Source: a virus
Length of the DNA stretch: 19,819 nucleotides
UHGV virus genome: UHGV-0254309
Strand: one strand, 5' to 3'
Made by a program: the position numbers and the translations under genes. Position 1 is the stretch's first letter. Each line of letters opens with the position of its first letter. Below, in pieces: positions 1 to 19,819 of this stretch. The notes beneath the pieces are model-generated. The model was given only the letters and a program-made list of their open reading frames with translations. It did not search any database and was not told where the DNA came from.

Positions 1-1818
<1,818 letters not shown>

Positions 1819-1819
<1 letters not shown>

Positions 1820-4010: not shown

Positions 4011-4215
4011 TCATTTTCACTTTCTTAAATCTAACGACAGACGGCTAACATTTAAGTATTGTGAAATATTATCAAATGTAATCATCATTGATTTACAAAA
4101 GATACATTTTGCCCCGAAAGGATTCCTGTCAGAAACATCAAAAGATGATGTTCTATACTGAGAACCATGGCAACACGGGCATCTAAAGTGAATATGGTTT
4201 GTAATATTTTCTACC

Positions 4216-4431
4216 TCAAAGTGCCACAACATGAACAGCCGCGGGGCCTTTAGGTCCGTTCTCAATACCAAATTCGACTTCCTGATTCTCAGTTAACGTT
4301 TTGAAATCGTTGCTCTGAATAGCTGAGAAATGGACAAACACATCTTTGCTACCATCTTTCGGCGTGATGAAACCAAAACCTTTTTCAGGGTTAAACCATT
4401 TCACTAAACCAGTCATTTTGTTAGACATCAT
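4216..4431 (-). CDS. cspI: Cold-shock protein, CspA family (CspI-like)
   Basis: 70-71 aa, [38 protein letters not shown]..., with RNP1/RNP2 motifs of the cold-shock domain. Two tandem ATGs at the start. Confidence 0.85.
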
Positions 4432-4791
4432 TATTACCTTTTGAAGAAGTTAGCCCTTGGGCAGAATGGTCCGAAAAAAAATATCAGAGAGAAAAACCAA
4501 CAAGGAAATCTCAAGAGGTACAAATAATAAAATTATAACAATGACTGCTTCAGATAATTTTGTAACAAACCAGAACACCATTAACGCATGATTAACCAAC
4601 CATAGCAAGGATTACTTTTGTAAAGAAAAACACACGAATGAAACAATAGCTTTATTTATTAATAAAACGTGTCATTCTGTCTAATGACCTTTTATCTTAC
4701 CCTTAAGATTTCAAGGATTTTGACTCATGGAAGAGTCCTTTTTATTTAAATTTCACATTCAGCGCTAAAAATAATCCGATTTAATATTAAT

Positions 4792-7385: not shown

Positions 7386-7664
7386 TATTGTGGTGCTTTT
7401 TGTGGGAGTCATCCACTTACGCACTTTGTTTTGCTATGCCAGCAGTTAGCTTCTGCTGTAAAACTATTCATGCAGCAAACCTGCACTTCACCACAATGGT
7501 TAGCATACTTTTCCTGATTAAGTTATTGCCAAATATGCTGGCCATTGTTTCATGTATTGGACCTCCTTACTATTTATTAAAGAGATCCAATATTCACCAC
7601 TCTGTCTGTATCTCCACTCAGGCATCAGCCTTCTTCGTTATCGTATACAGACAAACTATGAATT

Positions 7665-7880
7665 TTAATCAGTAATTATGACATTTGCTGCTGCAGGACC
7701 TTTAGCACCACTCTCTACAGAGAAGGTAACCTTTTGACCTTCAAATAAGGTTCGAAAATTATCATTCTGAATCGCAGAAAAATGCACAAACACATCTTTA
7801 CTACCATCAACAGGAGAAATAAAGCCAAAACCTTTATCAGCGTTAAACCATTTTACTAAACCAGTCATTTTATTTGACAT
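7665..7880 (-). CDS. cspB: Cold-shock protein, CspA family (CspB-like)
   Basis: 71 aa, [45 protein letters not shown]..., full cold-shock domain; long upstream leader typical of cold-shock genes. Confidence 0.85.
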
Positions 7881-8180
7881 TCTACATTCCTTAACTTGAG
7901 CCTTTCGGCATAAATGGCTTGTATAACAGAAACGACTTCGTACTTAATTGGAGAGACTCAAAGAAGGAATAAGTGAATAACACCTGAAATGAGAACTGCT
8001 TTAGTAAACTACTTCGTATATCGTCTGTTCTTCAAACCGACGCAATCATTAACGCATAGTTGAACATATGAAGCAATGTTTATTTTAGACATCCAGCCAT
8101 CTTCAACCCCATCAAAAAACTATAGCTTTCTTCAGGAAGGTGTGTATAGTGCGCCCAGTTATCAGTATTAAGGAATTTTT

Positions 8181-11395: not shown

Positions 11396-11785
11396 TCAGG
11401 CGGCTGCACCCGCCGTTTTCTCGTACTTACTGATAGTGATCTCGACCTTCCCTTTCGGGATAACCGGTCCCCACTCCACCAGCATTCTTTTCACCTGTCT
11501 GTCGTCTTCCCACACACCCGCGTGGGTCAGGGCGTCAAACAGCGCCTTGTTATAGTTGTCCAGATCGCGGATCCGGTTATCCGGAGGAAACAACACGATC
11601 TCCACTGAAGCAGGTGCCGACGTTGGTTTCGGCAGACGACGTAACTGCTCAACTATTGCTGCGCACGCCGCGCTCTGGAATTTGCGCCCCGCCGCGCTTA
11701 TCAGGCTTTTACCAGCAAACGCCCCTTTGTTAGGGTGTCGCCAGTACGTATTCACGCTGGGCGGGAAAGGCAGGATCAGTTTCAT
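11396..11785 (-). CDS. rusA: RusA-family Holliday-junction resolvase
   Basis: 129 aa; MKLILPFPPSVNTYWRH...DLDNYNKALFDALTHAGVWEDD carries the conserved RusA acidic motifs. Start overlaps the upstream stop (ATGA). Confidence 0.8.
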   Translation of the reverse strand: MKLILPFPPSVNTYWRHPNKGAFAGKSLISAAGRKFQSAACAAIVEQLRRLPKPTSAPASVEIVLFPPDNRIRDLDNYNKALFDALTHAGVWEDDRQVKRMLVEWGPVIPKGKVEITISKYEKTAGAAA

Positions 11786-12108
11786 ACTTTCAGGCCTCTC
11801 TCATGTAACCAGTGGGTTGCACGCAGCCTTGCGTTTTCCTCACCGGCAAGCAGTGAGCGGATAATCCCGACAGCCTCGCTGTCGTCGTCCTTCACCGCGG
11901 TATGAAGCGTTATCCCCCGGGCCACGCCACGCTTTATCGTGATGACGCCTTTTTTCTCCAGTGCGCGAAGATGCTCCACCGCTGCATTCACTGAACGGTA
12001 TCCCAGCATGGTTGCCACCTCCTGATTGGTTGGCGGGAAGCCACGTTCTTTCTGGTAAGAAATCAGCATATCCAGCACCTGCTGCTGGCATTGAGTTAAT
12101 GTCGTCAT
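11782..12108 (-). CDS. LexA-like winged-helix DNA-binding protein lacking the peptidase domain
   Basis: 108 aa; QQQVLDMLISYQKERGFPPTNQEVATMLGYRSVNAAVEHLRALEKKGVI parallels the LexA N-terminal domain, with no S24 Ser/Lys module. Start overlaps the methyltransferase stop (ATGA). Confidence 0.65.
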   Translation of the reverse strand: MTTLTQCQQQVLDMLISYQKERGFPPTNQEVATMLGYRSVNAAVEHLRALEKKGVITIKRGVARGITLHTAVKDDDSEAVGIIRSLLAGEENARLRATHWLHERGLKV

Positions 12109-12758
12109 GCCGCCATCTCCCTGACCAGTTTTTCCGCCTGCTGGCGAACCTGCGCCAGAAAGGCCTCACCACATGCCTCAAGTTCATCGCGCCCGATGTA
12201 GCTGATTGCCGGTCCCTTCCAGGTCTTGTCGAAAACAACAATAGCACCAGCGAAGAAAGCGCCTGTCGGCACCTGCTTCTCGTCCTTCGGTATAAACCAG
12301 GCAGGCAGTTCAAAACCAATACGCCCGCGAATAAAAGCAATATGATCTGCATCTTCCGGCCACCACACTTCGCTGGTGGCAGCTTTGATCAGGAAAACAT
12401 AGCGCCCGCCTTTATCACGCATGGCACTGGCATGTTTCATGATGTAACGCATGCCGGTGATGTATTGCCCCTCATGCTGACTGGCGCGGCTGTATGGGGG
12501 ATTACCAAAGGCAGCACCTTTAAGCTCCGCAAGACGTTCTGACCAGTCATGCGCCAGCGCGTTATCTTCCGCCGTGTAATACGCTGCACATTTGGCGTTA
12601 TCACCGTCAGTAAACAGATCCAGAACAAACGGGCCAAACAGGGTGTTAATTCCCCAAAAAATGTTGTCCGGTGTGCGCCACTGATCGCCCACTTCCTTCA
12701 GTTCATGGGCTGGTTTGTTCCGCAGTTCCACCAGCGCCTGGCAATATTTATTACTCAT
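12105..12758 (-). CDS. Phage orphan N6-adenine DNA methyltransferase (Dam-like)
   Basis: NPPY motif (GNPPYS) of amino-methyltransferases. Likely start is the ATG at 12758 in a TAATG overlap with the upstream stop (about 217 aa). No adjacent restriction endonuclease. Confidence 0.8.
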   Translation of the reverse strand: MSNKYCQALVELRNKPAHELKEVGDQWRTPDNIFWGINTLFGPFVLDLFTDGDNAKCAAYYTAEDNALAHDWSERLAELKGAAFGNPPYSRASQHEGQYITGMRYIMKHASAMRDKGGRYVFLIKAATSEVWWPEDADHIAFIRGRIGFELPAWFIPKDEKQVPTGAFFAGAIVVFDKTWKGPAISYIGRDELEACGEAFLAQVRQQAEKLVREMAA

Positions 12759-13246
12759 TAAGCCCCCACGTAATTCCCTGACAGATACCACTCTTCACCC
12801 GATGCAGCGCGCTTGCAGCTTTTCCGTAAGCACCGCTCACGACGCGTCAGAAAATTGTTTCGTTCTGGCTGGGAGTGGCTTTCACGGAATGCCGCCATCC
12901 ACACGGTTGCAGCACGACGGTATAAGCCCCTTGACTCCAGTTCTTCAGTCTGGCGGGTCAGGCACAAAATCACCCGGGGATCGTTAGTGCCGACATAGAA
13001 ATTGCGCACAGGTCTGGTTTCACGAACTGGTTGTGGTTCCGGCTCCTGCGCTCTCTCAGTCAGGCGTGGGAAATGTCTGCGTGTATCTCCTTCACAACGG
13101 TGAGCCACACGCCCACTCTGACGTAACTTGCTTGCTGACTGCAGAACGCGCTGCCGTGAGTAACCTGCAAAAGCATCCGCAATGTCTCCGGAAGTACACC
13201 CCGGATGGGCTTCAATGAATTTCTGAACTTCATTCAAAAGACTCAT
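12758..13246 (-). CDS. PerC-like transcriptional regulator with an extra N-terminal region
   Basis: Segment LESRGLYRRAATVWMAAF...RRERCL resembles the PerC/Pch family core. ATG at 13246 with GGGGGTG Shine-Dalgarno 2 nt after the O-like stop; listed ORF starts at GTG 13252. Confidence 0.5.
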   Translation of the reverse strand: MSLLNEVQKFIEAHPGCTSGDIADAFAGYSRQRVLQSASKLRQSGRVAHRCEGDTRRHFPRLTERAQEPEPQPVRETRPVRNFYVGTNDPRVILCLTRQTEELESRGLYRRAATVWMAAFRESHSQPERNNFLTRRERCLRKSCKRAASGEEWYLSGNYVGA

Positions 13247-13248
13247 GA

Positions 13249-14055
13249 TCACCCCCTGAATCCTGCCGGGATCTGGCTGTAGTCCACGTTGTCGTAACTG
13301 GCTTTGAAGTACGGGTCCTCACGTCTGGCTGCAGATACCGCAGGAACTTCCCAGGATTCTTCGAAATGACGATCCGGGCCAAAGAACGTGACAGCCTGTT
13401 TCACAAATTGTGTGCCGCTGTTACCCATCGCAGATACCCAGCCCGCGTAGCGTTTCACACCTTCCAGCATGGTTTCGGGGTTTACCCCCTCATTCAAACG
13501 GGCTTTCCAGGCTTTGAAGGCTGCAGATTTTGAATTGCCACCAGCACGTTTGGGATATACCAGCCATGCCTGCTCAAACTCCGGAGAGTATTCCGGTCGG
13601 TTTGAACGAACTCGCACGGACTCATCAACTGATGCACCAACAGCTATTGGTTCATTGACTGGTTCAAAAGAGTGACTGGTTCTGGGTGAATCTCCTGCAC
13701 TACCCCCTGGTGCAACTCCTGCACTACCTGGTGAATTTGCTGCACCAGATAGTGAATTATTTGCACTACCCCCTAGTGAATCTCCTGCACCATCAAGATG
13801 AAGGAGATAGATATTACTTGAGTTACCTTTTTCACCTTTCCGGGTGACTTTTTTTACCAGCCCGGACTCACAAAGGGCCGCAATATGATTCATCACAGAA
13901 CGTTTGCTAATCTCGCACTGGTCAGCAATATGCTGGTAGCTGGGCCAGCACTCACCCTGATCGCTGGCATTATCAGCCAGCTTGATCAGAACCAGTTTTC
14001 GCAATGGATTACCCACTCGAATTTTCATCGCTTTAACCATCAGCTCCATACTCAT
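13249..14055 (-). CDS. Replication initiator, lambda-O-like architecture (N-terminal wHTH, repeat-encoded linker, C-terminal domain)
   Basis: 268 aa; N-terminal winged HTH (LRKLVLIKLADNASDQGECWPSYQHIADQCEISKRSVMNHIAALCESGLV), low-complexity linker encoded by direct DNA repeats, distinct C-terminal domain. ATG overlaps upstream stop. Confidence 0.7.
   Translation of the reverse strand: MSMELMVKAMKIRVGNPLRKLVLIKLADNASDQGECWPSYQHIADQCEISKRSVMNHIAALCESGLVKKVTRKGEKGNSSNIYLLHLDGAGDSLGGSANNSLSGAANSPGSAGVAPGGSAGDSPRTSHSFEPVNEPIAVGASVDESVRVRSNRPEYSPEFEQAWLVYPKRAGGNSKSAAFKAWKARLNEGVNPETMLEGVKRYAGWVSAMGNSGTQFVKQAVTFFGPDRHFEESWEVPAVSAARREDPYFKASYDNVDYSQIPAGFRG
13685..13798. repeat. Iteron-like direct repeats inside the initiator gene (candidate phage replication origin)
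   Basis: About five 21-24 bp repeats with core (G/A)GTGAAT..CTGCAC (e.g. GGTGAATCTCCTGCACTACCCCCT, AGTGAATCTCCTGCACCATCAAG), flanked at 13800-13860 by an AT-rich stretch. Confidence 0.6.
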
Positions 14056-14276
14056 GCTGCACCTCCGAGATGCTTCATGTTTTTTCCGGAGCGAAAGGCT
14101 ATAAGCGGCATACTGACGCGGTAATTACGGCCCAGCGGTTCACAAATCACCTTCTGACATTCACGGTCAACCAGGCTAACACGTAGAACATGCCCTGCAG
14201 GTGTGGTATACCACTGACCCGGACGAGGACAACGGAAAGTCTGATTGGTAAACCGTTTGAAAATATTCCGGATCAT
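14052..14276 (-). CDS. Hypothetical small protein (74 aa)
   Basis: Tightly packed between the Rha-domain ORF and the initiator gene, with start/stop overlaps on both sides. No recognisable domain. Confidence 0.45.
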   Translation of the reverse strand: MIRNIFKRFTNQTFRCPRPGQWYTTPAGHVLRVSLVDRECQKVICEPLGRNYRVSMPLIAFRSGKNMKHLGGAA

Positions 14277-15421
14277 TTGCGCCCCCTTACCTCTGAAGGG
14301 TTCAGCGACAAATTTATGAGGCAGGCCAGCGCCGAAGCATCATTAATATAGTCATACAAGCTAACAGCCAGCGGAGATTCGGCTTTTGCCAACATAGGAT
14401 AAAGCTGCTGCAGCCAGACCTGATGAATTGATGAAATGTAGGAATAGAGAACGCTGGCGTTATGTGCAACGTCGCTCGGTACAGGGGGTTTTGAAAGCTG
14501 TTTCTCCATCTGGTTAAAGGCATTGATATATGCCTCTTTGAACTGGGCAGCACGTTTACCCGTGAAACCCATAGCAAGAAACGCAAAGCCGTCGCGGGTT
14601 ATTTGATAGCAAGGTAGTTTGCGGCCTGATGCGTCGATGTACTCACTGAGCTGAAAATTCAGCTCAGTAAATTCGGCAGAGCATTCAAGAGACGCAATTT
14701 TTTGAATGACATTTTTGTGTTGTTTGCCGAAATAACTAGCAACAGCCAGAGAAGAAGTAACAACTTTGTCTGCAATAATGCAAAGTTCAGGTTGTACTAA
14801 GGCAGGGATCGTAGCCATGATGGCAGCCTCCGTATGCAATGGATAACTTCCACCACCGGAAACGCCAATTTCGCTGGTGGTGAACTGAGCAGGGTTGGCG
14901 TAACCGGCGCATACGGAAACCGGCGCACCTTTCGGTGCCCCCACCCAGCCCACCATAATTTGGGTATAGCTGAGTTGTAGCAACAAAAAAGACGCTAACG
15001 CGCCAATTGTCGCCGTATGCAATTCCAGGACGCCAATCCCGGCACCCGCTTTATAAGGTGCCTGAACAGTGTAACGTCCCGGAATGGCAGAATCAATGTG
15101 CTGGTGGTCCTTCACACTCAACAAAATCACGCCTGAATTTCCACAAAGGACTAAAGCACTCATGCGGGTAGTCTTTGCGAAGATAGATAACGCGCTGTGT
15201 TTCTGGTTCCCAACGAATAACATGAACATAAAGCCCTCTTCCGTCACGAAACCAGCGGTTAAGTTCCTGCACAACTCGCCCCCCACAGTCAGGTAAAGTT
15301 CTCTGTGGTTACTTACAGCCAGGTGATTTGGTAATCTGCATTCATGCCGTAACAACAGGTGTTCAGAGACGCTGACCACCAGCTGTTGCGACAAACGGTT
15401 ATTTGCCGTTAAACTGTTCAT
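14273..15421 (-). CDS. Rha-family phage regulatory protein with a roughly 200 aa N-terminal extension of unknown function
   Basis: Residues about 215-300 (VTSSLAVASYFGKQHKNVIQKI...YQITRDGFAFLAMGFTGKRAAQFKEAYINAF) match the Rha domain. Long ORF starts at an ATG overlapping the upstream stop; an internal ATG at about 14818 with GGAGG upstream would give a 181 aa Rha-only product. Confidence 0.6.
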   Translation of the reverse strand: MNSLTANNRLSQQLVVSVSEHLLLRHECRLPNHLAVSNHRELYLTVGGELCRNLTAGFVTEEGFMFMLFVGNQKHSALSIFAKTTRMSALVLCGNSGVILLSVKDHQHIDSAIPGRYTVQAPYKAGAGIGVLELHTATIGALASFLLLQLSYTQIMVGWVGAPKGAPVSVCAGYANPAQFTTSEIGVSGGGSYPLHTEAAIMATIPALVQPELCIIADKVVTSSLAVASYFGKQHKNVIQKIASLECSAEFTELNFQLSEYIDASGRKLPCYQITRDGFAFLAMGFTGKRAAQFKEAYINAFNQMEKQLSKPPVPSDVAHNASVLYSYISSIHQVWLQQLYPMLAKAESPLAVSLYDYINDASALACLINLSLNPSEVRGRK

Positions 15422-15969
15422 GCGTTAGTTTCTCCACAGACACAAAACGCCACGACGCCCGGAGCTGCACACTCGCGGGCGTCACTCTTTTCTGGAGCGC
15501 AAAAGATTTTGTAGACCAGTGCTGCATGCTCCTGGAGCTTCGAAATTGACAGATACAACTCATCATTAATTGCTGTCTGCTCGTGTGGCTCCACTACCCC
15601 ATCTTCGATTGCCGAACGAATCTGTTTTGAGTAACTCCCGATCTGTTCGATGACTTCCAGCAGGCGCTGGTTTATATCGGCGTTCTCAACTTCCTCAATG
15701 TCAGGAAGCGATACAAACACCCCACCTGCAGACTGTGCGACAGCATCCGCAATGTAGTGAGTGCCAGCCGCGCGCTGTAAAATCATTGCCCATCCCAGCG
15801 GGAAAATCTGATCGCCATCTGCACGAAGGCGGTTGAATAAAGCGTTCTCTGTTACATCCAGCCACTCAGCAGCTTCAGCGTAACCCCCCGGCAACGCCGC
15901 GATAGTTTTTCTGACAGCTTTCACGTACCACTCAGGCTGTTTTTCCACTTTCCAGTGATGCTTACCCAC
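15418..15969 (-). CDS. Early regulatory protein in the cII position (function uncertain)
   Basis: 183 aa; GTG start preceded by a perfect AGGAGGT Shine-Dalgarno and overlapping the cro-like stop. Assigned by position only; no confident family match. Confidence 0.45.
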   Translation of the reverse strand: MGKHHWKVEKQPEWYVKAVRKTIAALPGGYAEAAEWLDVTENALFNRLRADGDQIFPLGWAMILQRAAGTHYIADAVAQSAGGVFVSLPDIEEVENADINQRLLEVIEQIGSYSKQIRSAIEDGVVEPHEQTAINDELYLSISKLQEHAALVYKIFCAPEKSDARECAAPGVVAFCVCGETNA

Positions 15970-16222
15970 GGCTTACCTCCTGTTCCTGTGGTTTAAACCC
16001 ATTCTGGTTTTGGCTAGATTGAAAACGTGCCGGATAAAGAATCTGCATTTCGCTGATTTCACCCTTAAAAAAATTGGCCAGACGCTCTGCAAGATCGATA
16101 GATGGAATTTGTTCCAGTCTCTCAATACGACTCAGCGTTGCTGGATTAACCTGAACGCCCGCAGCAACATGCTGCAAAGTAAACCCGTGCGCCTTACGCA
16201 CATTTCGTAATGGTGATTGCAT
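15962..16222 (-). CDS. Cro-like HTH (XRE family) regulator
   Basis: 86 aa with helix-turn-helix (HGFTLQHVAAGVQVNPATLSRIE). Divergent from the CI-like repressor across an operator-rich region; GGAGG Shine-Dalgarno. Confidence 0.75.
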   Translation of the reverse strand: MQSPLRNVRKAHGFTLQHVAAGVQVNPATLSRIERLEQIPSIDLAERLANFFKGEISEMQILYPARFQSSQNQNGFKPQEQEVSRG

Positions 16223-16319
16223 ATAACCTCCACATATTGCGTGATGAGCATATTATTTCACGCAAATATTTTGCGCAAGTTGATTTGCTTAACGCGCAAT
16301 AAAGAAATGTAATAAACGC
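16223..16319. promoter_or_regulatory. Immunity-region operator/promoter block (OR) with divergent PR-like and PRM-like promoters
   Basis: Operator-like sites: TTGCGTGA-N13-TCACGCAA (about 16237-16265), palindrome TTGCGCAA (16271-16278), TTGCTTAACGCGCAA (16285-16299). Minus strand: TTGCGC, 17 bp, TAATAT (PR-like). Plus strand: TTGCTT, 17 bp, TGTAAT ending about 6 nt before the cI ATG, with no Shine-Dalgarno. Confidence 0.6.
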
Positions 16320-17012
16320 ATGAACATAGGAAACCGAGTCAGACAACTTCGCCAGGCGAAGAACATGAAAATCGCCGATCTCGCTGAAGCAATAGGAGTG
16401 GATGCGGCGAATATCTCGCGCCTGGAAACAGGTAAGCAGAAACAATTCACTGAACAAGCCCTGAGTAATATTGCCAGGAGCTTAGGTGTTGATATTGCTG
16501 ATCTCTTTACCTCAGACGTCAAAAGTAATACTGTATGTAAAAACAGTATTAGTGAGGATGTTGCGCAGGTGAAGGATGTATTCCGTATTGAAATGCTGGA
16601 TGTCAGTGCCAGTGCGGGAAATGGCCTTATCCAGGGCGGTGATGTCATTGATGTGATTCATGCCATTGAATACAGAACTGATAATGCTGTATCGATGTTT
16701 GGCGGACGACCAGCCAATCACATTAAAGTTATCAACGTTCGTGGGGACAGTATGTGTCCAACCATTGAGCCAGGAGATCTCATCTTCGTTGATGTCAGTA
16801 TCAATCAGTTTGATGGAGATGGTATCTATGTATTTGGTTTTGATGATAAAATTTATGTCAAACGACTGCAAATGATACCTGACAAACTACTGGTGATATC
16901 TGATAACCAGATTTACCGTGAATGGGGAATTACCAGCGAAAATGAACACCGGTTTATGGTCTTTGGAAAGGTCTTAATCAGCCAGTCACAAACCCTTAAA
17001 CGACACAATTAA
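16320..17012 (+). CDS. CI-like prophage repressor (HTH plus S24 LexA-type autopeptidase domain)
   Basis: 230 aa; N-terminal XRE HTH (RVRQLRQAKNMKIADLAEAIGVDAANISRLETGK), Ala-Gly cleavage-site candidate (SASAGNG), catalytic Ser in GDSMCPT and Lys in VKRLQ. Confidence 0.85.
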   Translation: MNIGNRVRQLRQAKNMKIADLAEAIGVDAANISRLETGKQKQFTEQALSNIARSLGVDIADLFTSDVKSNTVCKNSISEDVAQVKDVFRIEMLDVSASAGNGLIQGGDVIDVIHAIEYRTDNAVSMFGGRPANHIKVINVRGDSMCPTIEPGDLIFVDVSINQFDGDGIYVFGFDDKIYVKRLQMIPDKLLVISDNQIYREWGITSENEHRFMVFGKVLISQSQTLKRHN

Positions 17013-17032
17013 CCCTTACTTCCTCATCAATT

Positions 17033-17056
17033 AGCCACCCGAAGGTGGCTTTTCAT
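17033..17056 (+). terminator. Rho-independent terminator downstream of cI
   Basis: Stem AGCCACC / GGTGGCT with CGAA loop followed by TTTTCATT, about 20 nt after the cI stop. Confidence 0.6.
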
Positions 17057-17067
17057 TACCCATCAAA

Positions 17068-17106
17068 TTGCATATCTCGCAATAAAAACACTTGCATAAT
17101 GCGCAA
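17068..17106 (+). promoter_or_regulatory. OL-like operator pair, presumed PL region
   Basis: Two 15-bp sites TTGCATATCTCGCAA and TTGCATAATGCGCAA share the TTGC-N7-GCAA pattern seen in OR. Promoter hexamers could not be placed with consensus spacing. Confidence 0.5.
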
Positions 17107-17531
17107 CTTCATTTTATCTTTCTTTCCAGACCAACAAACAAGGTACTAACAAAATTTGGTTGTAACACGGCGTATGGCACATGCGTCGTTAGCGGTCTGG
17201 GGACGTTAAAGGGGACAATCCACTCCTTGCTCGGGCAAACAAACCAGGTAGCCGGAATGTGCAAGTCAATGATGATGCTGATAAGACGCCTAACCAGCGC
17301 GGCGATCCGGTTTGACGCCTGGGAAGAGACCAGGGTGCAACGATGAGGGCATTTATGGAACCGCGACAAAGTGTGGTGCCGTAACTGGCTAAGTGCTCTC
17401 AGCGTTGTGGTAATCCGCGAAATGGCGCGGCGGTAAGTATGGCGGGGTTACTCTTTCCCCGTTGAGGACACCGGATTGTCAGGTTGACCATACGCCTGAG
17501 TGACAACCCCACCACAACAGCCACTGCTTTG

Positions 17532-17583
17532 GCGGTACCAGTTTGTACACTTGCTTCCGGCTGGTACCGCTCTTTTTACAAAA
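17532..17583 (+). terminator. Hairpin plus T-run in the PL leader, overlapping a boxA-like motif
   Basis: Perfect 10-bp inverted repeat GCGGTACCAG...CTGGTACCGC (19-nt loop) followed by TCTTTTTACAAAA; the CGCTCTTTTTACAAAA stretch resembles boxA. Confidence 0.4.
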
Positions 17584-17714
17584 CAGAGAAGAGCATCACC
17601 GGACGACGGGCTCATAACCCAATCCATCCGGGCGGCTGCCACCGCAGGTGTTCTTCTCTGTTTTGTGGAGAAACCAACCGGCCTTGCAGGGTCGATATGA
17701 TGAGGAGCAGCAAA

Positions 17715-18077
17715 ATGGCTAGCGAACGCAGTACTGATGTGCAGGCATTTATCGGGGAGCTGGACGGCGGCGTATTTGAAACCAAAATCGGCGCAGTTCT
17801 CAGTGAAGTCGCTTCCGGTGTGATGAACACGAAAACCAAAGGTAAGGTCTCGCTCAACCTGGAAATCGAACCGTTTGATGAGAACCGTGTGAAAATCAAG
17901 CACAAACTCTCATATGTTCGCCCGACTAACCGCGGGAAAATTTCCGAAGAAGACACCACCGAAACGCCGATGTATGTCAATCGCGGTGGTCGCCTGACTA
18001 TTCTGCAGGAAGACCAGGGACAATTACTGACTCTTGCCGGTGAACCTGACGGAAAACTCCGCGCAGCAGGTCATTAA
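17715..18077 (+). CDS. yfdP: YfdP-like prophage protein
   Basis: 120 aa from the ATG at 17715, which has GAGGAG 7 nt upstream (MASERSTDVQAFIGELDGGVFETKIG...). The longer listed frame includes the leader hairpin and is probably not translated. Confidence 0.7.
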   Translation: MASERSTDVQAFIGELDGGVFETKIGAVLSEVASGVMNTKTKGKVSLNLEIEPFDENRVKIKHKLSYVRPTNRGKISEEDTTETPMYVNRGGRLTILQEDQGQLLTLAGEPDGKLRAAGH

Positions 18078-18142
18078 TATCGTTCTTAATTAACTGATTA
18101 TTTATCTCATCACTGAATATCTTTATATAGTGAGGACTTATT

Positions 18143-18967
18143 ATGTCTCAGAACTTAGACGCAACCGCAATTAATCAAATCCATGCCCTTATTTCTGCTC
18201 AGGGTGTTAATGAAATTATCAGTAAGATTGGTGCCGATGCTGTGGCATTGCCTGAGAATTTCCGCATTCATGATCTGGAAAAATTTAATTTAAATCGCTT
18301 CCGTTTCCGTGGTGCGCTTTCCACTGCCAGCATCGATGACTTTACCCGTTATTCTAAAGATCTTGCAGATGAAGGCACCCGCTGCTTTATCGATGCTGAT
18401 AATATGCGTGCCGTCAGTGTACTTAACCTGGGTACTATTGATGAACCAGGTCACGCAGATAACACCGCCACTCTCAAACTGAAAAAGACAGCACCGTTCT
18501 CTGCCCTGTTGTCTGTTAACGGCGAGCGTAACTCCCAGAAGTCACTGGCAGAATGGATTGAAGACTGGGCCGACTACCTTGTGGGCTTTGATGCTAATGG
18601 TGACGCTATTCAGGCAACAAAAGCGGCTGCGGCAGTCCGTAAAATCACGATTGAAGCAAACCAGACCGCTGATTTTGAAGATAATGACTTCAGCGGCAAA
18701 CGCTCCCTGATGGAGTCTGTCGAAGCGAAGACCAAAGACATTATGCCAGTGGCATTTGAATTTAAATGCGTTCCGTTTGAAGGCCTTAAAGAACGTCCGT
18801 TTAAATTACGCCTCAACATTATCACTGGCGATCGTCCTGTACTGGTTCTGCGCATTATTCAGCTGGAAGCAGTGCAGGAAGAAATGGCTAACGAATTTCG
18901 TGATCTGCTTGTTGAGAAATTTAAAGACAGCAAAGTAGAAACCTTTATTGGTACTTTCACCGCCTGA
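18143..18967 (+). CDS. yfdQ: YfdQ-like protein (DUF2303)
   Basis: 274 aa ORF with GAGGA Shine-Dalgarno, [30 protein letters not shown]..., recognised as the YfdQ family. Confidence 0.8.
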
Positions 18968-19094
18968 TTTCATTACTGCAAATGCCCCTGCGGGGGCATT
19001 TATGGAAACATAATTTACTCAATAATCGCCGGATGGTGATGGCTTCCTTTTACCAGAATTCAGCGCGGTACAGCGCATATACGTGGAGAACAAT

Positions 19095-19631
19095 ATGTCA
19101 TTTATTAAAACTTTTTCCGGGAAGCATTTTTATTATGACAGGATAAATAAAGACGACATCGTTATTAACGATATCGCGGTTTCCCTTTCAAATATCTGTC
19201 GCTTTGCAGGACATCTTTCACACTTCTACAGCGTCGCCCAACATGCGGTGCTTTGCAGCCAGCTGGTACCGCAGGAATTTGCTTTTGAAGCGTTAATGCA
19301 TGATGCAACAGAAGCATATTGCCAGGACATCCCCGCACCACTGAAACGCCTTCTTCCTGACTATAAACGGATGGAAGAAAAAATAGGCGTCGTCATCCGT
19401 GAGAAATACGGATTACCCCCGGTTATGAGCACGCCCGTGAAATATGCCGATCTCATCATGCTGGCAACCGAACGCCGCGATCTCGGGCTTGATGATGGCT
19501 CTTTCTGGCCTGTACTGGAAGGTATCCCGGCGACAGAGATGTTCAAAGTTATTCCACTGTCACCAGGCCATGCCTACGGGATGTTTATGGAACGTTTTAA
19601 CGAGTTATCGGAGTTACGCAAATGCGCATGA
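19095..19631 (+). CDS. yfdR: YfdR-like HD-domain protein (5'-deoxynucleotidase family)
   Basis: 178 aa from the ATG at 19095 (GGAGAA 4 nt upstream); HD-type metal-binding residues (...SVAQHAVL...LMHDATEAY...). Listed ORF begins at an upstream GTG. Confidence 0.8.
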   Translation: MSFIKTFSGKHFYYDRINKDDIVINDIAVSLSNICRFAGHLSHFYSVAQHAVLCSQLVPQEFAFEALMHDATEAYCQDIPAPLKRLLPDYKRMEEKIGVVIREKYGLPPVMSTPVKYADLIMLATERRDLGLDDGSFWPVLEGIPATEMFKVIPLSPGHAYGMFMERFNELSELRKCA

Positions 19632-19819
19632 ATGTTTTCGAAATGGAAGGGTTTCTTCGCGGGAAATGTGTACCGCGAGATCTGAAAGTGAACGAAACAA
19701 ATGCTGAGTACCTGGTACGTAAATTCGATGCGCTTGAAGCTAAATGTGCGGCACTGGAAAACAAAATAATACCAGTGTCAGCTGAACTACCACCAGCAAA
19801 TGAAAGTGTTCTGTTATTT
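19622..19819 (+). CDS. yfdS: YfdS-like protein, 5' part only (runs off the window)
   Basis: Starts MRMNVFEMEGFLRGKCVPRDLKVNETNAEYLVRKFDALEAKCAALENKII..., overlapping the yfdR stop; open to the window end. Confidence 0.65.
   Translation, partial: MRMNVFEMEGFLRGKCVPRDLKVNETNAEYLVRKFDALEAKCAALENKIIPVSAELPPANESVLLF

Follow-up and report, generated by a model that had tools for sequence, protein, structure and literature searches.

A lambda-like immunity region with putative TTGC-N7-GCAA operators and a probably leaderless cI in an Escherichia coli prophage

The operators of phage 434 are 14 base pairs (bp) long and follow the pattern ACAA-N6-TTGT. Translation of a leaderless mRNA requires a 5' AUG, and in phage lambda the promoter for maintenance of the repressor gene cI (PRM) has a -10 hexamer which ends 6 nucleotides (nt) before the start codon (TAGATT-TAACGT-ATG). 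The repressor gene ymfK of the prophage e14 has the same spacing (TTGTAC-17-TTTAAT-TTCGTT-ATG), and its transcription start has been mapped to the first base (A) of the start codon, with a leader length of 0 (Table S3 of Romero et al., PMC4681348); ymfK was also examined there by RNA ligase-mediated reverse transcription PCR (RLM-RT-PCR; Fig. S1), and racR (leader 0) and dicA (leader 3) are likewise leaderless (PMC4681348). Here we describe the immunity region of the virus genome UHGV-0254309, of which a stretch of 19,819 nt (hereafter the window) was analysed. The window is part of a lambdoid Escherichia coli prophage, and copies of a 15-bp motif, TTGC-N7-GCAA, lie on both sides of its cI gene. 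These repeats are very probably repressor binding sites, and we consider it likely that the region is an immunity cassette with dyads for CI (and Cro), a right operator (OR) of three sites, a left operator (OL) of two sites, and a leaderless cI. The two genes between which OR would lie are the following:

Positions 16320-17012, plus strand: cI, 230 amino acids (aa), with HTH_3 and Peptidase_S24 domains.
Positions 15962-16222, minus strand: cro, 86 aa, with an HTH_3 domain and the recognition helix NPATLSRIE, similar to that of cI.

An earlier note on this DNA, made from the letters alone, had pointed to TTGC-N7-GCAA 15-mers on both sides of cI, and three exact copies do stand where it placed them: TTGCTTAACGCGCAA at 16285-16299, TTGCATATCTCGCAA at 17068-17082 and TTGCATAATGCGCAA at 17092-17106, together spanning 822 nt. 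When the whole window was searched, one other exact copy was found (1995-2009). That copy lies within a packaging gene and has C and G at the positions at which the family consensus, given below, has R and Y. Shuffled sequences lead one to expect 0.81 matches per whole window, and none of 2500 first-order Markov sequences had three or more matches inside 900 nt; the clustering of the motif is thus above chance. A copy with one mismatch, TTGCGTGATGAGCAT, is found at 16237-16251. Across the whole window, one-mismatch versions of the motif are not enriched (17 against 14.6 expected), and the case for operators therefore rests on position and conservation rather than on loose matches.

For the comparative analysis, we collected 23 loci with cI relatives (39-97% identity) from a scan of contigs with one genome per species. 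The loci come from Shigella, Citrobacter, Kluyvera, Pseudescherichia, Klebsiella, Buttiauxella, Trabulsiella, Pantoea, Mixta, Dryocola, Rosenbergiella, Proteus, Serratia and Phaseolibacter, and phage Eeyore (68%) was added as an extra locus. This yielded 22 distinct upstream regions from about 15 genera of Enterobacterales, which were aligned without gaps on the cI ATG. Three sites stand in this alignment at fixed offsets from the ATG with no indel, namely TTGC-N7-GCAT at -83, a site ending in the box TTGCGCAA at -56, and TTGC-N7-GCAA at -35. The mean pairwise identity is 0.97 for the half-site columns, as against 0.52 for the N7 interiors and 0.47 for the stretches between sites. The closest diverged pair, the window and phage SfII, follows this pattern, its substitutions in OR1, OR3, OL1 and OL2 all lying within the N7 interiors. 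Positions that were not used for picking the sites are symmetric as well (R at position 5, Y at position 11, and W at the centre), and the consensus dyad is TTGCR-N5-YGCAW, the last base of a site being A or T. A symmetric 15-bp dyad is what would be expected for a dimeric helix-turn-helix (HTH) protein. The same dyad occurs in OR and just past the cI terminator also in relatives whose cI is only 54-70% identical.

Three sites in OR are a refinement of what the earlier note had described. Its placement of sites between cro and cI stands, as three sites at fixed positions in place of one site plus loose palindromes. Among its "related palindromes", the box TTGCGCAA (16271-16278) is real: 19 of the 22 relatives have it exactly, and none of them lacks its GCAA half. 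We rejected the long palindrome TTGCGTGA-N13-TCACGCAA as an operator because it is not kept as a unit, the arms past TTGCG being lost in phage SfII and in more distant relatives. We also rejected a middle site in 24-bp phase (16261-16275); the corresponding site of the relatives, at offset -56, instead has the GCAA of the TTGCGCAA box as its right end. The resulting map of proposed sites and promoters, with the rightward and leftward early promoters called PR and PL, is as follows:

Positions 16231 to 16227, minus strand: Shine-Dalgarno sequence of cro, GGAGG.
Positions 16237-16251, unstranded: OR1, TTGCGTGATGAGCAT, overlapping the last bases of the PR -10 and the region in which PR would start; offset -83, with TTGC in 22/22 and GCAT in 21/22 distinct relatives.
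Positions 16250-16255, minus strand: putative PR -10, TAATAT; TA...T is kept in all relatives.
Positions 16264-16278, unstranded: OR2, AAATATTTTGCGCAA, with its right half inside the TTGCGCAA box.
Positions 16273-16278, minus strand: putative PR -35, TTGCGC, 17 nt from the -10; on this strand it coincides with the right half of OR2.
Positions 16285-16299, unstranded: OR3, TTGCTTAACGCGCAA, whose first six bases, TTGCTT, would be the PRM -35.
Positions 16308-16313, plus strand: putative PRM -10, TGTAAT, 17 nt past TTGCTT and 6 nt ahead of the ATG.
Positions 17033-17054, plus strand: intrinsic terminator of cI, a 7-bp GC-rich stem and a T-run.
Positions 17068-17082, unstranded: OL1, TTGCATATCTCGCAA, upstream of the PL -35.
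Positions 17092-17106, unstranded: OL2, TTGCATAATGCGCAA, whose first six bases, TTGCAT, would be the PL -35.
Positions 17115-17120, plus strand: putative PL -10, TATCTT, 17 nt past TTGCAT.

The three OR sites are contained in a cro-cI gap of 97 nt. OR1 ends in T rather than A in the relatives because the PR -10 overlaps its last two bases. Judging from spacing, PR would start near 16243, giving cro a leader of about 21 nt, and PL would start near 17127. OL consists of two sites directly past the cI terminator, for which an equivalent hairpin is found in the relatives and which is annotated in phage SfII. In the relatives OL1 and OL2 are 22-24 bp apart, and a TAnnnT hexamer follows the TTGCNN of the last site at exactly 17 nt in 18 of the 24 loci. 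The -35 hexamers of PR, PRM and PL would thus each be an operator half-site, an assignment that draws on this conserved geometry.

Given this overlap, the repeats could in principle be promoter elements only, with TTGC conserved as part of TTGNNN -35 hexamers in otherwise AT-rich DNA and the repressor binding elsewhere. In favour of this, a -35 hexamer opens three of the five sites, namely OR3, OL2 and, on the minus strand, OR2. OR1 and OL1, however, lie off any -35 position and yet keep both half-sites, the GCAW half is about 97% conserved in promoter spacers that are normally free to vary, and positions 5, 8 and 11 are symmetric. In addition, the motif changes along with the repressor cassette, as described next. 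We therefore regard a purely promoter-based origin of the repeats as extremely improbable, and continue to treat them as probable operators.

A comparison that bears on the binding partner is provided by the heteroimmune phage cdtI, which is nearly the same as the window on both sides of the region (97.7% identity over 15300-15997, and 99.1% from 17148 onwards). Between these flanks, its repressor and cro are of the e14 type, and dyads of the GTAC type occupy OR as well as OL. In cdtI and e14 the dyad has the form TGTACC-N5-GGTACA, and its places are again OR, where it covers the PRM -35, and the stretch directly behind the cI terminator. The features concerned are the following:

Positions 15998-17147, unstranded: exchangeable immunity cassette, comprising most of cro, OR, cI, the terminator, OL and PL, and bounded by the flanks shared with cdtI.
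Positions 15418-15969, minus strand: cII-like gene of the YmfL/CP76 type.

Since the dyads of both operators are exchanged along with the repressor between flanks that remain alike, this amounts to a natural swap, and it argues against recognition by a cII-type protein or a host factor. The lambda-like layout that the earlier note had proposed, with repressor sites on both sides of cI, accordingly gains from two observations, the conservation of the dyads and their co-replacement with the repressor cassette.

A regulator other than CI, whether Cro alone, a YmfL/CII-like protein or a host factor, nevertheless deserves consideration. TTGC is also the half-site of lambda CII, which recognises TTGC repeats; the recognition helix of Cro, (T/N)LSRIER, is similar to that of cI; and sequence alone cannot assign a site to a protein. 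Against this, the repeats here are inverted with N7 and not direct with N6 (lambda CII, TTGC-N6-TTGC), and the sites overlap PR, PRM and PL with none in a position like that of the CII-dependent promoter PRE. The part of the cII-like gene that could be compared between the window and cdtI lies in the 97.7%-identical flank, and yet the motif differs, which shows that it is not tied to cII. Lastly, the cI recognition helix, (A/G/S)(N/S)(I/V)SR(L/V)ETGKQK, is kept in all relatives, wherever the motif is conserved. Another regulator as the sole reader of the dyads is therefore very unlikely in our view. The similarity of the CI and Cro helices fits a set of sites shared by both proteins, with CI probably the repressor that acts through them.

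The second part of the proposal concerns the start of cI. The earlier note had read TGTAAT as ending 6 nt before the cI ATG with no Shine-Dalgarno sequence, and the window reads exactly so: TGTAAT at 16308-16313 is followed by AAACGC (16314-16319) and ATG (16320-16322), the 20 nt upstream of the ATG (TAAAGAAATGTAATAAACGC) contain no GGAG-like or GAGG-like stretch, and the list of open reading frames (ORFs) holds no in-frame cI start codon earlier than 16320. The arrangement of hexamer, 6 nt and ATG is kept in 18 of the 22 distinct relatives, with 7 nt in one, while the sequence of the gap itself varies (AAACGC, GGACGC, AGGCGC, GAGCTT, TGGCCT and others). All 20 distinct relatives without a leader start at ATG, as leaderless translation would predict, and the two with a leader start at GTG. 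The latter are the two Rosenbergiella loci, which keep OR1-3 and a TTTAAT hexamer and have an insertion of about 45 nt, with a GA-rich Shine-Dalgarno-like stretch ahead of the GTG. Together with the same geometry at lambda PRM and at e14 ymfK, this conserved spacing makes it very probable that cI is transcribed without a leader, as the earlier note had suspected, and by analogy with ymfK, the A of the ATG (16320) is the most probable first base of its RNA.

We would like to note several points that weigh against the proposed switch and its promoters. The evidence is sequence and comparison throughout. PR, PRM and PL match the promoter consensus poorly (7-8 of 12 positions), and a consensus promoter scan of the window did not report any of the three; the scan reported instead another plus-strand candidate, TCCACA-16-TATTAT at 16229-16256. 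The PRM -10 has the form T-(G/T)-(T/A)-A-A-T in all 22 relatives and in e14, never with A at position 2; in sigma-70 -10 elements this A is normally the base that matters most. PRM should therefore be intrinsically weak or need help: it may be a very weak promoter, depend on an activator, or have to be read in a different register. We rejected an extended -10 (TGnAATAAA), since it is not conserved in the relatives. The left half of OR2 is completely degenerate in the window, with the full site within one mismatch of the consensus in about half of the relatives, and a complete OL/PL is absent in six relatives. Finally, the centres of OR2 and OR3 would lie near -49 and -28 relative to the cI start, positions that differ from those in lambda, so that activation of PRM from OR2 cannot be assumed.

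Some of these points also speak for a leadered cI in the lysogen, with transcription from a promoter further upstream or from a cII-dependent one inside cro and translation from an internal AUG without a Shine-Dalgarno sequence; TGTAAT would then owe its conservation to something else. The missing A in the PRM hexamer, the scan candidate at 16229-16256 and the leader of about 45 nt in the Rosenbergiella relatives would all agree with it. The 6-nt gap, on the other hand, is fixed in length while its sequence varies, and every unleadered relative has ATG. Moreover, e14 has the same unusual type of hexamer at the same spacing, with its transcription start at the A of the AUG, and the alternative -35 is the complement of the cro Shine-Dalgarno sequence and is not conserved as a hexamer. 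A leadered transcript thus appears unlikely, and a leaderless cI remains the preferred interpretation. It would be a further, comparatively well supported, example of a leaderless mRNA encoding a prophage repressor.

The predicted proteins suit the proposed switch. HTH_3 was found by Pfam at 41.8 bits in cI and 39.5 bits in Cro (cut-off 23), and Peptidase_S24 (PF00717) at 68.2 bits in cI (cut-off 23.3). Ala99-Gly100, as the predicted cleavage site, and Ser144 (in GDSM) can be read from the cI translation, and Lys181 (in VKRL) aligns with Lys156 of LexA. The S24 domain, which the earlier note had called cleavable, is hence intact as judged from sequence, with the Ser/Lys dyad and the Ala-Gly site. 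Searches of the cI DNA-binding domain against solved structures gave weak generic HTH matches, the best to ClgR (E 1.7e-4); the only match to a structure derived from a phage repressor was the designed 434 repressor domain dh434 (E 2e-4).

In the switch we propose, whose binding protein, order of site filling, transcription starts and cleavage we infer from the features above, a dimeric CI with a 434-like HTH and a LexA-type self-cleaving domain would bind the 15-bp TTGCR-N5-YGCAW dyads, and Cro would very probably bind the same ones. OR1 would cover the PR -10 and start, OR2 the PR -35, OR3 the PRM -35 and OL2 the PL -35, with OL1 just upstream of OL2. CI at OR1/OR2 and OL1/OL2 would then turn off PR and PL, and CI or Cro at OR3 would turn off cI. 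In the lysogen, cI would be transcribed from TTGCTT-17 nt-TGTAAT into an RNA beginning at the A of the AUG, which would therefore be translated as a leaderless mRNA, and self-cleavage at Ala99-Gly100, stimulated by RecA, would lift repression.

A further dyad, GTGCGCCTTACGCAC, was noticed at 16187-16201, inside codons 8-12 of cro. About 11 relatives have at this place a site with the full consensus (e.g., TTGCGATTTTCGCAA in phage Eeyore) that encodes L-R-K-S-Q, with Leu always TTG and Ser always TCG, and relative to the consensus the dyad in the window has its outer bases changed symmetrically. This hints at a fourth, intragenic operator.

Just outside the cassette, the leader of the putative PL transcript runs for about 600 nt untranslated before yfdP, shows 1-nt indels relative to Citrobacter, and includes a structured RNA element at 17150-17412 on the plus strand. 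Its core has an invariant GGAATGTGCAAG, GGCGAT..GGTGTGAC and a hairpin with a GAAGAG loop. In P1/P7/D6 the same RNA lies in the C1-controlled ban operon, with tRNA-Ile on one side and ban on the other. In epsilon15-like phages it stands immediately ahead of tRNA-Arg(UCU), in mEp390 it follows a different cI, and at least 60 IMG/VR contigs carry it, about 35 of 58 with a flanking tRNA. In an alignment of 31 non-redundant sequences, pairing at the 22 predicted pairs (5 helices) reaches 97.9%, compared to 86% in shuffles, none of 500 of which attains the observed value, and 29-46% in slid controls; compensatory changes are seen at 12 of the pairs. Neither Rfam (E up to 1) nor ARAGORN yielded a match in the PL leader, and no paper with a 12-mer of the RNA core was found in the literature searched.

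Several neighbouring features of this leader were observed. A long-range helix, CAACGATGAGGGCATT ... AGTGCTCTCAGCGTTG (17343-17409, plus strand), closes a variable insert at the 3' side of the RNA and covaries by eye in other phages (e.g., CAACCAAAAGAGCGC / GTGCTCTTTTTGTTG); in some phages the insert includes a tRNA T-arm-like GGTTCGATTCC. A second non-coding module (17404-17526, plus strand), matched at 85-90% identity by other phages (Evi, HannyBb, PPompW prophages and an Actinobacillus phage), occurs independently of the first. It is followed by a terminator-like hairpin (17532-17572, plus strand) with an 11-bp stem GCGGTACCAG..., a variable loop and a T-run, and then, about 40 nt before yfdP, by a hairpin of 25 bp, the folding z score of 17532-17672 being -5.7. 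Both hairpins keep their stems unchanged in SfII, Citrobacter and e14 but vary in the loop; in e14 the region is annotated as YmfH.

The PL-leader RNA could, for example, bring about antitermination past the 17532-17572 hairpin in a prophage that lacks N. A broader version of this idea, in which the switch has no positive autoregulation and the RNA is an N-independent, cis-acting control of the early left operon belonging to an undescribed RNA class, is doubtful as a joint claim and is offered only tentatively. The lack of positive autoregulation is considered because the operators contain the -35 hexamers, a perfect OR3 sits at the PRM -35, and A is always absent from position 2 of the PRM -10. 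If true, the PL-leader RNA would complete the control of the early left region as an undescribed class of phage RNA.

The remainder of the window places the module in its prophage. From 11416 to 19819 it is 99.9% identical to a prophage adjoining yjjG in E. coli O111:H8 SF4-1, and collinearity with that prophage is lost left of about 9500. The other genes around the cassette are the following:

Positions 14273-15421, minus strand: gene of the Rha/Ash type.
Beyond cI, on the opposite side from cro, plus strand: yfdP, yfdQ and yfdR.

The 1.3-kb cro-cI module is 91-98% identical to those of phages PhiR63_1, mEp460, Stx2a_WGPS2, 1720a-02 and SfII, with 97-98% DNA identity for the deposited phages mEp460 and PhiR63_1. 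The cI protein is 97% identical to that of SfII, likewise a deposited phage, and the strains UTI89 and APEC O1 contain a module with 98.6% identity. At the packaging end, the match of the large terminase ORF (137-1819, minus strand, 560 aa) stops at 201 of the 294 positions of the GpA nuclease-domain profile. The earlier impression of a functional-looking switch beside a damaged packaging end therefore agrees with what the sequence predicts, an incomplete terminase nuclease domain in the same prophage as a module like those of deposited phages.

Elsewhere in the prophage, Rfam matches to C4 antisense RNA (80.7 bits) and isrK (61.2 bits) were obtained at 14873-15061 on the minus strand. These lie inside the 382-aa ORF 14273-15421, in a stretch that Pfam scores as an 'Ash' domain; the 5' end of this ORF may therefore be over-called, and 14873-15061 may be an RNA-controlled antirepressor module as in P1/P7. 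The cspA thermoregulator 5' untranslated region gave two full-length matches on the minus strand (4170-4586 at 110 bits and 7602-8041 at 157 bits), and these point to two cold-shock-protein-type genes in the late region of the prophage. The counterpart in SF4-1 of a 108-aa ORF at 11782-12108 (minus strand) is annotated 'LexA family transcriptional regulator', and this ORF would be a second, short S24-type protein within the PR operon.

This immunity type is common, with most of the 1.3-kb module contained in 1040 of 5426 complete E. coli genomes, and it is also carried by Stx2a-converting phages and by Shigella serotype-converting phages. An operator consensus and a promoter map should be of use for predicting superinfection immunity groups from sequence, for designing reporter and induction assays, and for finding further targets of the repressor; our understanding of how such switches work is unchanged by them. 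The locus is an ordinary lambda-type switch that follows the lambdoid pattern in every feature tested, and its operator sequence was not found described. Specifically, no paper with the exact operator 15-mers was found in the non-subscription literature searched, and searches around ymfK, SfV and mEp460 returned no published description of these operators.

Compared to lambda, the locus shares a divergent cI and cro around a three-site operator, a second cluster beyond cI over PL on the cI strand, a repressor with HTH and S24 domains, a PRM -10 ending 6 nt before the ATG, and adjacent sites 21-27 bp apart. It differs in that its operators are 15 bp long (17 bp in lambda) and unrelated in sequence, OL comprises two sites where lambda has three, each -35 hexamer forms an operator half-site, OR2 and OR3 lie some 7-10 bp further from the cI start, there is no rexAB between cI and OL, and no N gene is evident downstream of PL. 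Phage 434 is similar in that its operators are short dyads whose outer quartets are conserved around a variable centre, and in the resemblance of its CI and Cro recognition helices, although sequence similarity to it is marginal. With ymfK, racR and dicA of E. coli K-12, as well as lambda cI, the locus would share a mobile-element repressor transcribed from within 3 nt of its start codon, the transcription start here being placed by analogy. The closest resemblance in flanking genes and regulatory layout is to e14 (ymfK/cohE repressor, ymfT as cro, and ymfL) and cdtI; in e14 too, an operator supplies the PRM -35, and the cII gene (YmfL family) and parts of the PL leader are homologous. The immunity specificity of e14 and cdtI is different, with TGTACC-N5-GGTACA dyads, and e14 ymfK was rejected as the same repressor, given its different sites and an identity of about 38% over only 39 residues of the S24 domain. 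The module described here is thus an immunity variant of the e14/cdtI-type early region.

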